Below are positions 4,067 to 7,092 of a DNA stretch of 64,000 nucleotides, piece by piece (the stretch's first letter is position 1; each line of letters begins with the position of its first letter). The position numbers and the translations under genes are program-made. Origin of the DNA: Candidatus Poriferihabitaceae bacterium. Its GTDB lineage: Bacteria > Pseudomonadota > Gammaproteobacteria > Arenicellales > Poriferihabitantaceae. Location: the NCBI GenBank assembly GCA_965204925.1, contig OZ242021.1, positions 652,000 through 715,999 of the forward strand, given 5' to 3'. The notes beneath the pieces were generated by a model, which was given only the letters and a program-made list of their open reading frames with translations, did not search any database and was not told where the DNA came from.

Positions 4067-4849
4067 ATGTCGTCACAGGATCGTATCAAACCCCTGTTCG
4101 CGCTGAACGGAAAAGTCGCCCTCGTTACCGGCGCCAGCAAAGGTATCGGTGAAGCCATCGCACGCGGGTTGGCTGAATTTGGCGCGAGGGTCGTGGTCAG
4201 CAGCCGTAACCGGGCGGCGGCAGGGCGGGTCGCAGCCGCGTTTCAGGCGGATGGACTCGATGCGGTCGCCATGGCCGCCAATATCGGGAATCTCCGCGAT
4301 ATAAACCGGCTGGTGGAAGCAACGCTGGAAAGCCGCGGAGGAATCGATATTGTTGTCAACAACGCCGCCGCCAATCCGGTATTCGGCCCGATCCATGAAA
4401 CGGATGAACGCGCATTCGACAAGATTATCGACGTCAACCTGAAAGGGCCTTTTGAACTTTGCAAACGGGTGCGCCCTGTCATGAGGGAACGCGGAGGCGG
4501 CTCAATGATCAATATCAGTTCAATCGGCGGGCTCACTCCTGAACGGTTTATCGGCATTTACAGTGTCAGCAAAGCCGCCGTCAACAACCTGACACAGGCC
4601 ATGGCCCAGGACTGGGGAAAAGACAATATCCGCGTCAACGCCATATGCCCGGGATTGATAAAGACCCGCTTCAGCGAGGCGCTCTGGCGCAATGACGCCA
4701 TTTTGCAACGTTTTGTCGACCACATTCCCCTCGGCAGGGTTGGACAAGCTGGCGATATTGCGGGACTTGCCGTGTTTCTGGCATCGGATGCGAGCGCCTA
4801 CTGCACCGGAGGTATTTACACGGTGGACGGCGGCTATTGTGCGGTCTGA
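4067..4849 (+). CDS. short-chain dehydrogenase/reductase (SDR) family oxidoreductase
   Basis: 260 aa with the TGASKGIG cofactor motif, NNAA and a YSVSK (YxxxK) catalytic motif. Confidence 0.8.
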   Translation: MSSQDRIKPLFALNGKVALVTGASKGIGEAIARGLAEFGARVVVSSRNRAAAGRVAAAFQADGLDAVAMAANIGNLRDINRLVEATLESRGGIDIVVNNAAANPVFGPIHETDERAFDKIIDVNLKGPFELCKRVRPVMRERGGGSMINISSIGGLTPERFIGIYSVSKAAVNNLTQAMAQDWGKDNIRVNAICPGLIKTRFSEALWRNDAILQRFVDHIPLGRVGQAGDIAGLAVFLASDASAYCTGGIYTVDGGYCAV

Positions 4850-6585
4850 ACGTTGTTGCGGGTAATTTCGAGAAGGTACATAACCATCGTGTGCTCGTTT
4901 TCAGAGTACTTGAAATGATAGGCGTCGGAAAGATTTTCCACCGCATAAATCTGTTCCAGGTTATCGTTGAACAACGGGTTGAACGGATACAGATTGAAAT
5001 CAACAACGCGGAATTTGTACCCGTTTTTCTGTAACAGATCGCGGGTGCGTTTGGCTCCGAGCATGGAAACCTGCATGAGGTAAGCCGTGCCGTCCACATT
5101 CAGGTAGCTGCTCAGATTCTTGATAAAATGATCGAGCAGGTTGCGCCCCCAATAGTCGATGTCGCGATATCCCCGGCTCTGCCCTTTTGGATGGGTCGGC
5201 ATCTGATACAGGCTGGCCACGATCACATCGAACTTTTCCTCCGGCAGAAAGGAATACAAATCTGCGGCGATTCCGGTCATGCGCCCGGCAACGCCATTAC
5301 GGAAGGCATTGGTTAATGTGTTGTTGACAGCCTCGGGCAAAATATCGAAAGCGGTCACATTTCGCGCCCCGTTGAGCGCCAACTGTATGGCCAGTATGCC
5401 GACCCCGCAGCCGACATCAAGACAGTTCCTGTCAGCGCCTGTAGCGTGGTTAAACAGATATTTCCAGATCAGGTAACTGCCCTGGGTGGGCACGAATACC
5501 CCGCTGTCAACAACGATTTTCGGCAAGGGCAGTGGATACAATTCGCGGCCGAGCGCATCCACCCAGCCAAACCCGTCCGGCATACGGGGCATACCCGAAA
5601 GCGCCGGCTCCTCTTCCCTGATCTTCCTGCGCTCGCGTCCGCGCGGCGCCCCTTTCATCGCTTGCGCCACAGCGGCTATCTCGGCGGGTCCGACACCACA
5701 GCAGCCCCCGATGATCTGCGCTCCTTCTGCCCGCCACGTCAGGGCTTTGGCGGCAAAATCATGCGGCGCCATCGACTCGTCGAATTTCCAGCCGGAATTG
5801 ACGAATCTGCCGACGTTGGGGTACACGCCCAGAGGCAACGTTGTAAAATCCCTCAACCACGACAACGTTCCGTCCACCCGGTTGATCGGCAGACAGTTGA
5901 TCAACAAAGCCCCGACTCCTATTTTCTCGAACATCCGCGCCAGACGGCCGAAACGGTCGCCCTCGGGTCCTCCCCAAAGCTGACCGTGTATACCGCAAAC
6001 CCCCTTGCGGCACCGTCTGAATGAAACCCAGACCGGAAAACCGGAATCGATCAGCGCCCCGATGGCATCGAAGGTCAGGTTGTCCTCAATAAGAGACAGG
6101 GTTTCAAAGAGGATGAGGTCGGGAGGACAGTCGCGGAATATGCGCAGCAGGAATTCCATCGTATCCTTCTGCTCGTTATTTTCGATCTCCCCGCCAATGC
6201 TGAACGCGACCACCGCATTATGCTCCCGATTCCGCTCGGCGATTGCCTGTCTCGGCAATTCGATTGCGGTGCGCGCCAGATCCATCCAGTGAATCGGGTT
6301 CGGAACATGAATATCGTAATCGGCGGAATAGGAAGGCGCGTCCAGGATCGTGTAGGTATCGGTCGTCAGTATGTGCGCCCCGGCATCCAGATATTGCCTG
6401 TGCACATCAAGAACTGCCTGCGGCGCTACGTGCAGCGCGTCAAACCCCCAGTGAATATCCTCCTTCAAACCCCATCCCCGGATGCCCGGGCGCTGCAACT
6501 CCGTAGCAACGGCGCCGTCCAGTATGACACATTGATCGTTGTCGACAAGTTCTTCGATATGGCCGTATCCCGCAGGATTTTTCAT
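4834..6585 (-). CDS. fusion protein: N-terminal homocysteine S-methyltransferase (Hcy-binding) domain plus C-terminal class I SAM-dependent methyltransferase domain
   Basis: One uninterrupted ORF. The N-terminal half has Hcy-MTase hallmarks (ILDGAVATEL, LINCLP, IIGGCCGVGP zinc-ligand cysteines). The C-terminal ~200 aa has SAM motif I LDVGCGVGILA and an HemK/MTS-like layout (VFVPTQGS...). Start chosen at the ATG at 6583-6585 (MKNPAGYGHIEEL). The track ORF extends to a TTG at 6690. Confidence 0.7.
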   Translation of the reverse strand: MKNPAGYGHIEELVDNDQCVILDGAVATELQRPGIRGWGLKEDIHWGFDALHVAPQAVLDVHRQYLDAGAHILTTDTYTILDAPSYSADYDIHVPNPIHWMDLARTAIELPRQAIAERNREHNAVVAFSIGGEIENNEQKDTMEFLLRIFRDCPPDLILFETLSLIEDNLTFDAIGALIDSGFPVWVSFRRCRKGVCGIHGQLWGGPEGDRFGRLARMFEKIGVGALLINCLPINRVDGTLSWLRDFTTLPLGVYPNVGRFVNSGWKFDESMAPHDFAAKALTWRAEGAQIIGGCCGVGPAEIAAVAQAMKGAPRGRERRKIREEEPALSGMPRMPDGFGWVDALGRELYPLPLPKIVVDSGVFVPTQGSYLIWKYLFNHATGADRNCLDVGCGVGILAIQLALNGARNVTAFDILPEAVNNTLTNAFRNGVAGRMTGIAADLYSFLPEEKFDVIVASLYQMPTHPKGQSRGYRDIDYWGRNLLDHFIKNLSSYLNVDGTAYLMQVSMLGAKRTRDLLQKNGYKFRVVDFNLYPFNPLFNDNLEQIYAVENLSDAYHFKYSENEHTMVMYLLEITRNNVQTAQ

Positions 6586-6717
6586 GATCGAGTCTGCGTT
6601 GCGGCAATCATTGACCACGCCCGATACATAGAACCCGGCCTTTGCGCCGCGGCTGCCAGCGAGCGCTGGACAATCCGCCATCGCCCGCAAAAGGAGCGTC
6701 GGGGCACGGCAACCTGC

Positions 6718-7092
<375 letters not shown>

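Follow-up and report, generated by a model that had tools for sequence, protein, structure and literature searches.

The fusion gene and its distribution

In the genome of a Candidatus Poriferihabitaceae bacterium (NCBI GenBank assembly GCA_965204925.1), a sponge-symbiont gammaproteobacterium of the order Arenicellales, we analyzed a stretch of 64,000 nucleotides (nt) of contig OZ242021.1 (positions 652,000 to 715,999 of the forward strand), hereafter called the window. A gene on its minus strand, located next to glnB, encodes a 583-amino acid (aa) protein in which a homocysteine S-methyltransferase (HMT) domain is joined to a class I S-adenosylmethionine (SAM)-dependent methyltransferase domain (Table 1). 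The probable role of this fusion protein is to pass methyl groups around the methionine/SAM cycle. The open reading frame (ORF) extends from an ATG at window position 6585 to a stop codon at 4836-4834. A possible alternative start, a TTG at 6690 in the same frame, would add 35 residues; the ATG is the likely start, because homologues of 575–590 aa align from residue 1. An earlier sequence-only reading of this DNA had described a continuous single ORF lying 132 nt downstream of glnB on the same strand and carrying the motifs LINCLP, GGCCG, LDVGCGVGILA and VIVASLYQMP. The 583 codons are indeed open throughout, the coordinates of the two genes give exactly this spacing, and all four motifs were located.

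Table 1. Features of the fusion gene and its two neighbors (window coordinates)
Feature	Position	Strand	Basis
Fusion protein coding sequence, 583 aa and stop codon	4834..6585	-	Translation; full-length homologues
PF02574 TIM barrel, residues 20-310, MmuM-like	5656..6528	-	Pfam, E 9.5e-40
DGAVATEL, residues 23-30, homocysteine-site motif	6496..6519	-	phmmer alignment to E. coli MmuM, PDB 5dml
Insert FRRCRxGVCGIHGQLWGGPEGDxFG, residues 189-213, 25 residues, almost invariant	5947..6021	-	Alignment columns
Cys231, first putative zinc ligand, in LINCLP (residues 228-233)	5893..5895	-	INC motif of MmuM
Cys295-Cys296, second and third putative zinc ligands, in GGCCG (residues 293-297)	5698..5703	-	GGCC of MmuM, MetH
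Inter-domain linker, residues ~311-360, variable, predicted disordered	5506..5655	-	pLDDT, conservation
Class I SAM-dependent methyltransferase domain, residues 361-583	4837..5505	-	hhalign, PDB profile search, AlphaFold2 model
Motif I LDVGCGVGILA, residues 389-399, putative SAM-binding glycine loop	5389..5421	-	Aligned to GxGxG of HemK2, MmtN
Motif IV VIVASLYQMP, residues 454-463	5197..5226	-	S458-L-Y-Q461 in the place of NPPY
glnB (P-II), upstream neighbor, context only	6718..7056	-	Pfam P-II, E 6.8e-33
Short-chain dehydrogenase/reductase (SDR) gene, convergent	4067..4849	+	Pfam adh_short_C2, E 2e-68

A search of 5.8 billion proteins at E ≤ 1e-3 returned 2,632 clusters, and a metagenome scan yielded 345 stretches encoding relatives. 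The best 120 of the 2,632 clusters are 570–656 aa long, except for two truncated entries (445 and 512 aa), and the two-domain Pfam pattern is common to all of the full-length ones; the only names found among them were “homocysteine S-methyltransferase family protein” or composite JGI labels. Family members number in the thousands; they belong to Pseudomonadota, Planctomycetota, Acidobacteriota, Actinomycetota and other groups and were obtained from marine, sponge and soil sources. In an alignment of 66 members, which are 52–87% identical to the query, approximately 120 positions are invariant and are distributed over both domains, and strong purifying selection on both domains is a well supported reading of this pattern. 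Within the order, the gene is present in 16 of 151 genomes: it occurs in every sampled genome of the genus, patchily in the family and rarely beyond. The fusion is therefore a conserved accessory gene. In one genome of the same family (G037:C1:649275-650963), the gene contains two stop codons (TGA and TAG) and resembles a pseudogene, which fits an accessory, dispensable role.

The sequence-only reading had raised the concern that a sequencing frameshift, or an annotation error, had joined two adjacent genes, and this explanation now has practically no credit: the halves do appear as separate genes in a few assemblies, such as that of locus L019, and several C-domain-only entries of 230–250 aa lie on long contigs, but among the best 120 homologues almost every one is a full-length fusion, and they come from many sources and phyla, within the order the frame is open over 584–647 aa in 15 of 16 relatives' genomes, L019 belongs to a long-read assembly in which many neighboring genes are split too, and the architecture is kept in thousands of sequences, which rules the artifact out. 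Naturally split versions were also considered and the candidates rejected: the apparent L019 split lies in that fragmented long-read assembly, and most of the short C-domain-only matches are on contigs of 1–2 kb. Full-text literature searches found no publication on a fusion of an HMT with a class I methyltransferase. Judged from its sequences, the fusion is a real and widespread bacterial enzyme made of known kinds of domain in a new combination.

The N-terminal homocysteine S-methyltransferase domain

The N-terminal domain matched PF02574 with 137.7 bits, against a gathering cut-off of 22 bits, and all 283 model positions were covered. In phmmer alignments with PDB entries, its DGAVATEL motif corresponded to LLDGAMATELE of MmuM, and the zinc-site segments INC, YPN.G and GGCC of the PDB homologues were likewise aligned to the domain. 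Residues D23, G24, T28, E29, E161, C231, C295 and C296 are invariant in the 66-member alignment, as are N230 and all positions from G293 through G297. The three cysteines fit the zinc-site pattern of the PF02574 superfamily, with one Cys behind strand 6 and a CC pair behind strand 8. An MmuM-type zinc-dependent HMT domain is thus a well supported assignment for this half of the protein, and the MmuM/BHMT type proposed in the sequence-only reading agrees with both the PF02574 match and the zinc cysteines.

Among the NCBIfam models, MmuM (NF007020) scored best with 110.5 bits, which is below its equivalog cut-off of 215 bits. The YitJ, MetH and BHMT models scored under it, the BHMT model NF005718 reaching 42 bits against a cut-off of 338 bits. 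The full-length AlphaFold2 model had a predicted local distance difference test (pLDDT) score of 81 and a predicted TM-score (pTM) of 0.66. Foldseek matched this model to the homocysteine barrel of MetH, then to MmuM (25% identity; TM-score normalized to the target, TMt, 0.72–0.78) and then to BHMT. By sequence, MmuM is the nearest known enzyme to the N-domain, yet the fusion is not a member of the MmuM family.

Comparison with characterized systems places these features in context. MmuM, plant HMT and yeast Mht1 and Sam4 have in common with the N-domain its fold, the Cys3 zinc site (INC...GGCC) and the DGAxATEL motif; the MmuM-type enzymes are approximately 25% identical to it, but only the fusion has the nearly invariant 25-residue insert (FRRCR...WGGPEGD), and none of the characterized HMTs is fused to a 220-aa SAM methyltransferase. 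BHMT and Bmt have the same fold and zinc site, but BHMT carries a DGG motif where the fusion has the MmuM-type DGA. In YitJ-type HMT/MTHFR proteins and in MetH, the homocysteine barrel is likewise fused to a second module of methyl metabolism; those modules bind folate, pterin or cobalamin, whereas the partner in the fusion is a SAM-consuming class I methyltransferase.

The insert has no counterpart in MmuM, BHMT or MetH and was not aligned to any PDB homologue. Its residues R190, R191, G195, G201, Q202 and W204 through G213 are invariant, and residues 198–203 have low pLDDT. In the linker that follows the barrel, pLDDT was below 50 at residues 323–341 and 350–364, and the columns are poorly conserved except for W341, D343, P351 and P355.

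The C-terminal class I methyltransferase domain

The Pfam class I models PrmA, MTS and Methyltransf_25 matched residues ~360–540. When the C-domain profile was aligned by hhalign to 16 standalone HemK2-like proteins, the probability was 100% with an E-value of 2.5e-42 over 179 columns, and the homology extended from the SAM lid at the N-terminus through the Rossmann core. When a profile built from 19 C-domains was searched against the PDB, human N6AMT1/HemK2 was at the top, tied with a short partial match to the L11 methyltransferase PrmA, and was the best match over most of the domain length. The resemblance to PrmA covered only the SAM-binding core (residues 384–458; Pfam, 46.8 bits): the PrmA model TIGR00406 gave 50 bits against a cut-off of 183 bits, and no full-length match including the N-terminal substrate domain was obtained. 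The other curated cut-offs were missed as well (TIGR00537, 61.4 versus 87 bits; PRK14968, 91.5 versus 162 bits; TIGR03534, 46 versus 199 bits). The AlphaFold2 model of the C-domain alone had a pLDDT of 82.5 and a pTM of 0.82.

In motif I, G392, C393, G394 and G396 are invariant. In motif IV, S458-L-Y-Q461 falls on the NPPY columns of HemK2-like proteins in the profile alignment and on those of N6AMT1 in the PDB alignment. Residues S458, Q461, M462, P463, R474, D477 and W479, on the acceptor side, are invariant across phyla, and therefore catalysis is more likely than SAM sensing alone. The sequence-only reading had described a HemK/MTS-like domain with VIVASLYQMP in place of N/DPPY, and the profile alignment supports this description. 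The domain does not clearly belong to a known family of protein or rRNA methyltransferases, as every NCBIfam cut-off was missed and NPPY is absent. By its alignments, the C-domain is a derivative of HemK2/MTQ2 that has lost the NPPY motif which defines N-methylation, and it is well supported that it would bind SAM and have a conserved acceptor site of a non-NPPY type.

HemK2/MTQ2/N6AMT1 (KMT9) and the archaeal PRK14968 proteins are homologous to the C-domain over approximately 180 residues and have in common with it the SAM lid (Y/F)xP(T/A)(Q/E)(G/D)(S/T) and a GR...D segment after motif IV. The C-domain differs from them in an extra C-terminal extension of 45 residues and in having SLYQ for NPPY; moreover, HemK2 works with Trm112, whereas the C-domain is joined to an HMT instead. 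In an exhaustive search of 1.8 billion representatives, the C-domains formed a tight family of 38 clusters at E ≤ 1e-30, and the next relatives were standalone proteins of 190–240 aa with NPPY.

One standalone HemK2-like methyltransferase of 228 aa (P0336; L102:542-1228) has the motif IV sequence S-S-L-P-Q-M-P, an intermediate form with respect to NPPY, SLYQ (the fusion) and CLPQ (MmtN). This protein may represent an unrecognized family of small S-methyltransferases; its 2.4-kb contig held nothing informative on gene context. A divergent, actinobacterial-looking branch of the fusion (P0255 and P0256; 43% identity) has S-L-E-Q-P-A at motif IV and has kept the zinc cysteines, while the DGAxATEL and PTQGS motifs are lost; it may be a functional variant.

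Comparison of the C-domain with MmtN

The methionine S-methyltransferase MmtN produces S-methylmethionine (SMM), and the sequence-only reading had speculated that the C-domain might act in the same way. When the isolated C-domain was compared with the PDB by Foldseek, the first matches were the MmtN structures 7VVX and 7VVW (E 1.3e-10), with a TM-score normalized to the query (TMq) of 0.59–0.63 over ~275 aligned columns, nearly the whole domain length, and 14–16% identity. METTL5, Asc-Orf2 and KMT9 followed at near-equal E-values. With the full-length model, MmtN was the third distinct protein.

For profile comparison, six MmtN sequences were taken from supplement 3 of PMC9135737, in which motif IV of MmtN is given as V-I-V-G-C121-L-P-Q124-V-G-E127. 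This motif takes the form C-(L/I)-P-Q, its C121 contacts SAM, and the MmtN groups are approximately 30% identical. In hhalign, the match of the C-domain to MmtN was confined to 96 N-terminal columns, which form the SAM-binding half, and had an E-value of 4.8e-5 and a probability of 68%. S458-L-Y-Q461 was placed on C121-L-P-Q124, so that L and Q are common to the two motifs while C is replaced by S and P by Y. D414, which is invariant in the fusion family, was placed on the SAM-binding D69. At the position of E127-P128 of MmtN the family consensus is D465-P466, residue 465 being His in the window protein, and the loop after motif IV differs in length between the two proteins. A candidate shared C-terminal motif (Q-I-x6-[ST]-D-x2-[FH]-F) was rejected, since hhalign gave it no support and the predicted secondary structure differs. 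No canonical MmtN was found in the host genome or in the compared loci.

HemK2-like proteins themselves matched MmtN in hhalign with 94.6% probability and an E-value of 7e-8, NPPY falling on CLPQ, and MmtN is thus a distant relative of the HemK2-like proteins. As judged by these profiles, the C-domain is not a member of the MmtN family; MmtN and the C-domain are best described as two enzymes of the HemK lineage in which N-P-P-Y was replaced by small-L-x-Q, and the replacement may have been independent and convergent. MmtN and the N-domain of plant MMT (PDB 7VVV, 7VVW and 7VVX) have in common with the C-domain the class I HemK-related fold and the loss of NPPY at motif IV. They are functionally paired with an HMT, as separate enzymes in plants and as adjacent genes in organisms of the Candidate Phyla Radiation (CPR) and DPANN. 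MmtN, approximately 15% identical to the C-domain, is a standalone trimer with a cap domain, and the C-domain is much closer to the NPPY-bearing HemK2-like proteins than to MmtN. In PMC9135737, MmtN is described as needing no catalytic residues and as working by a “proximity and desolvation” mechanism. In CPR/DPANN organisms, the Group II mmtN genes adjoin putative genes for HMT, and on this basis an SMM cycle was predicted for prokaryotes (PMC9135737).

Gene context of the fusion in other lineages

We compared the gene context of the fusion in ~95 loci. Three genes recur beside it: metK, ahcY and an adenosine-kinase-like member of the pfkB family. L057 and L065 have the complete order metK-pfkB-fusion-ahcY, of which other loci show parts: a pfkB match is missing in L054/L055, only metK-pfkB is present in L056, and only fusion-ahcY in L072, L093 and L061. 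A second order, metK-pfkB-ahcY-fusion, was found in L075, and in L101 metK and an ahcY-like gene are arranged likewise. In addition, the fusion is followed by metK directly in L080 and L085 and at a distance of 2.7 kb in L087. Genes in these operons are 21–130 nt apart, and both MetK and AhcY exceed the curated cut-offs of their families. Two of the operons, from soil/other metagenomes (L057:5363-11300 and L075:4127-9713), contain a complete activated methyl cycle in four genes. A “conserved unknown 507-aa neighbor” was discarded, as it is an antisense frame of ahcY in high-GC loci.

Two further kinds of neighbor were observed. Short (350–440 aa) MetE-like synthases lie by the fusion in L013/14, L019, L020, L027, L029/39 and L044/49, and are adjacent to it in at least five lineages. 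SoxB/SoxA-family (sarcosine-oxidase-type) or DMGDH-like (dimethylglycine-dehydrogenase-like) genes are near the fusion in L062, L070, L078, L044/49 and L011: SoxB-family genes are 6–110 nt from it in L062 and L070, beside soxA-family genes, and DMGDH-like genes are within 2–7.5 kb of it in L011, L044/L049 and L078. In L062 (1199-7983), a gene set resembling sarcosine oxidase, made up of a DAO-type gene, a 108-aa ORF, and soxA-family, GcvT-like and soxB-family genes, ends 6 nt before the fusion on the same strand. In L044 (3418-4014; also in L049), the start of the fusion is overlapped by a gene resembling ArsC/LMW-PTP (the arsenate reductase/low-molecular-weight phosphatase family), and 15 nt downstream lies a convergent, short MetE-like gene. 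Such a context, which is limited to one lineage, may point to arsenic or thiol chemistry.

On the fusion tree, each of the neighbor states (metK/ahcY/pfkB, MetE-like, Sox/DMGDH) changes at least five times. For single-copy genes such as metK and ahcY, such recurrence is far beyond chance. Because of the operons with metK, ahcY and the adenosine-kinase-like gene, together with the MetE-like and sarcosine-oxidase-type neighbors, the placement of the fusion in the activated methyl (methionine/SAM) cycle is well supported. These metK-pfkB-ahcY operons around the fusion, and the comparison with MmtN in motif and fold, are new here.

Methionine metabolism in the host genome and its family

In the 2.62-Mb host genome, neither MetE nor MetH was found (no PF01717 match), and the only PF02574 genes are those for BHMT (C1:247598-248614; 437 bits versus a cut-off of 338 bits) and the fusion. 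Methionine regeneration in this bacterium therefore seems to depend on betaine-type methyl donors. SAR11 is likewise dependent on betaine-type donors for the regeneration of methionine. The host metK and ahcY genes adjoin each other elsewhere in the genome. Two SoxB/SoxA-like clusters are present on C1 (~530–535 kb and ~1408–1412 kb), as are six DMGDH-like paralogues with DAO and GcvT domains (~830 aa; ~292–294, 612–614.5, 1064–1067, 1559–1561.5, 2244–2247 and 2324–2326.5 kb), a set of N-methyl-oxidizing enzymes that is unusually large for a genome of 2.6 Mb.

Among the 61 genomes of the symbiont family, up to eight PF02574 paralogues of 300–375 aa each were detected per genome, and full-length MetH was present in only five. 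These numbers suggest that the family has diversified its use of methyl donors for homocysteine. The short MetE-like gene showed no clear relation to the presence of the fusion in this family, being found in 18 of the 25 carriers and 22 of the 36 non-carriers.

Function of the fusion protein

We favor a one-protein SMM cycle, with a rough probability of 0.4, in which the C-domain would make SMM from methionine and SAM and the N-domain would use SMM to methylate homocysteine. Both halves of the bifunctional enzyme would be catalytically competent. In the N-domain, the homocysteine thiol would be activated on the Cys3 zinc site and then be methylated by a sulfonium (onium) donor, which would give methionine. 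The C-domain would no longer methylate an amide or amine nitrogen; it would instead transfer the methyl group of SAM to the thioether sulfur of free methionine, yielding SMM and S-adenosylhomocysteine (SAH). SMM would then pass to the N-domain and methylate homocysteine, with the release of two methionines, and the net reaction would be SAM + homocysteine → SAH + methionine. Together with MetK, AhcY and adenosine kinase, such an enzyme could use SMM to buffer or store methyl groups and methionine and could set the balance between SAM, methionine and homocysteine. This buffering role is the one that has been suggested for the MMT/HMT cycle of plants and for the paired mmtN and HMT genes of CPR bacteria and DPANN archaea. 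In the host, the enzyme would work beside BHMT in a cell living on methylated osmolytes.

This closed cycle is favored because fusions usually join consecutive reactions, because the N-domain is MmuM-like, because the C-domain resembles MmtN in its motif and its fold ranking, and because the pairing of mmtN with HMT genes has been published. The SMM cycle that the sequence-only reading had put forward speculatively gains real but indirect support from the top Foldseek rank of MmtN, from the alignment of CLPQ on SLYQ and from the published gene pairs, although by sequence the C-domain is not a member of the MmtN family (phmmer not significant; hhalign probability only 68%). If the cycle exists, SMM cycles of the plant type would prove to be common among both free-living and symbiotic bacteria, and the fusion would offer a compact enzyme for studying them.

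Several observations weigh against the SMM cycle. The Foldseek ranking is undiscriminating, as MmtN, METTL5, Asc-Orf2 and KMT9 all lie between E 1.3e-10 and 3e-10, and the TMt of KMT9 (0.71) exceeds that of MmtN (0.57). Pairwise phmmer between the C-domain and MmtN was not significant, MmtN was not among the top 60 PDB profile matches of the C-domain, and past motif IV hhalign gave no significant similarity between the two C-terminal halves. The methionine-binding residues E127, R132 and E250 of MmtN are without clear equivalents in the fusion. As to the relative orientation of the two active sites, the pTM of the full-length model is only 0.66, and the literature search gave no biochemical data for any member of the fusion family. 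Furthermore, a closed cycle would be futile: with MetK and AhcY it would only burn ATP, so that a dedicated operon is hard to rationalize. The Sox-type and DMGDH-type neighbors in some lineages would fit an open methyl route better, and the large set of methyl-oxidizing enzymes in the host genome points the same way.

In such an open route, the main rival of the SMM cycle, which we regard as possible though unlikely, methyl groups would come in and go out: the N-domain would load them from external onium compounds such as SMM, dimethylsulfoniopropionate (DMSP) or glycine betaine, MetK would make SAM between the steps of the two domains, and the C-domain would unload them onto another acceptor. 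The methylated small acceptor would be oxidized by enzymes of the sarcosine-oxidase or DMGDH type, or released, and AhcY and adenosine kinase would close the loop; the fusion would thus be both the entry point and the exit point of a catabolic methyl cycle. In mammalian liver, an analogous path runs from BHMT through MAT and GNMT to sarcosine dehydrogenase. The operons of metK, pfkB, ahcY and the fusion, found in two orders, argue for this route, since the loop that they encode would be futile without an inflow and an outflow of methyl groups. Further points in its favor are the SoxB/soxA-family genes by the fusion in L062 and L070, the DMGDH-like genes in L011, L044/L049 and L078, and a host genome in which BHMT is the only methionine synthase and which has two Sox clusters and six DMGDH-like paralogues. 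The standalone PF02574 enzyme Bmt, moreover, uses DMSP and betaine directly (PMC12366255). On the other hand, fused domains usually perform consecutive steps, whereas MetK would be needed in between here; with NPPY lost, glycine or another amine is less likely as the acceptor; these genomes have many genes of the DAO/GcvT type, so that their proximity is only mildly enriched, and they are absent from most loci; and the sequence names no candidate acceptor. The sequence-only reading had offered a betaine-linked methyl shuttle as its alternative, to which the sarcosine-oxidase- and DMGDH-type neighbors in some lineages lend support. If methyl groups are conducted in this way, the fusion would account for the fate of the methyl group in bacteria that use homocysteine to demethylate betaine or DMSP, a gap in the present picture of marine one-carbon and sulfur cycling.

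A related and equally tentative proposal is that the fusion is the signature enzyme of a self-contained, operon-encoded four-gene methyl cycle (metK, adenosine kinase, ahcY and the fusion). By way of methionine and SAM, this cycle would pass methyl groups of sulfonium or quaternary-ammonium osmolytes (SMM, DMSP, glycine betaine) to a dedicated acceptor, after which they would be oxidized or released. Sponge symbionts and marine and soil bacteria would then have a catabolic pathway for onium methyl groups that has not been described in bacteria.

Less probable is a composite SAM:thiol methyltransferase, which would act on another thiol or selenol acceptor or would methylate homocysteine from SAM bound to the C-domain, either with methionine and SMM as a relay or by direct transfer from SAM to the zinc thiolate; its role would be detoxification (selenium, sulfide or arsenic) or repair of the SAM pool. 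MmuM-type enzymes (MmuM, SMT, Mht1/Sam4) also methylate selenohomocysteine and selenocysteine and accept SAM, and this range of activity is consistent with such a role, as are the ArsC-like gene directly before the fusion in L044, the invariant C388 and C393 at motif I and the nearly invariant C192 and C197. The homocysteine-site motifs are nevertheless kept as in MmuM, the class I domain has its own acceptor side, which is strongly conserved, and the arsenic-gene link occurs in that one lineage.

We find it slightly harder still to credit that the C-domain is a non-catalytic SAM/SAH sensor regulating an SMM- or betaine-dependent HMT, in the manner of the SAM-binding regulatory domain of eukaryotic MTHFR. 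The catalytic NPPY is lost while the SAM-binding motifs are intact, and the gene is located in SAM-cycle operons, as would suit a sensor; but the invariance of the seven acceptor-side residues S458, Q461, M462, P463, R474, D477 and W479 is unexpected for a dead acceptor site, and MmtN shows that S-methylation can proceed without catalytic residues (PMC9135737). Finally, a macromolecular (protein or RNA) methyltransferase fused incidentally to a homocysteine methylase is very improbable: HemK2/MTQ2, PrmA and PrmC are the nearest families by sequence and prfC lies two genes upstream in the window, but the NPPY required for glutamine or adenine N-methylation is absent, all curated cut-offs were missed, the prfC/glnB neighborhood is not conserved, and the fusion is ancient and universal in its family, with methionine/SAM genes as its conserved neighbors. 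Whether the SMM cycle or the open route applies, the C-domain would constitute a second HemK-like lineage without NPPY, which would be useful for predicting methyl-acceptor chemistry from sequence.

Immediate neighborhood of the fusion gene

The genes in this part of the window are, in order, pyrG, tilS, accA, a gene for an AhpC-type peroxiredoxin, the convergent SDR gene, the fusion, glnB, prfC and a yfiH-like gene, so that the immediate neighborhood of the fusion consists of housekeeping genes. Neither a promoter-like nor a terminator-like site was found in the 132-nt gap between the 3′ end of glnB and the fusion. Neither the window (E ≤ 1) nor any of 11 diverse loci showed a riboswitch or other RNA element upstream of the fusion. 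The adjacency of glnB is not kept, as close relatives have other genes between or beside the two, and its link to the fusion appears to be incidental. The SDR gene overlaps the fusion at its 3′ end by 16 nt (window positions 4834-4849). Its cluster was found in 12 loci and adjoins the fusion in 10 of them; the SDR gene is the most constant neighbor of the fusion in the Arenicellales, and SDR genes are adjacent to it again in L030/L033 and L067.

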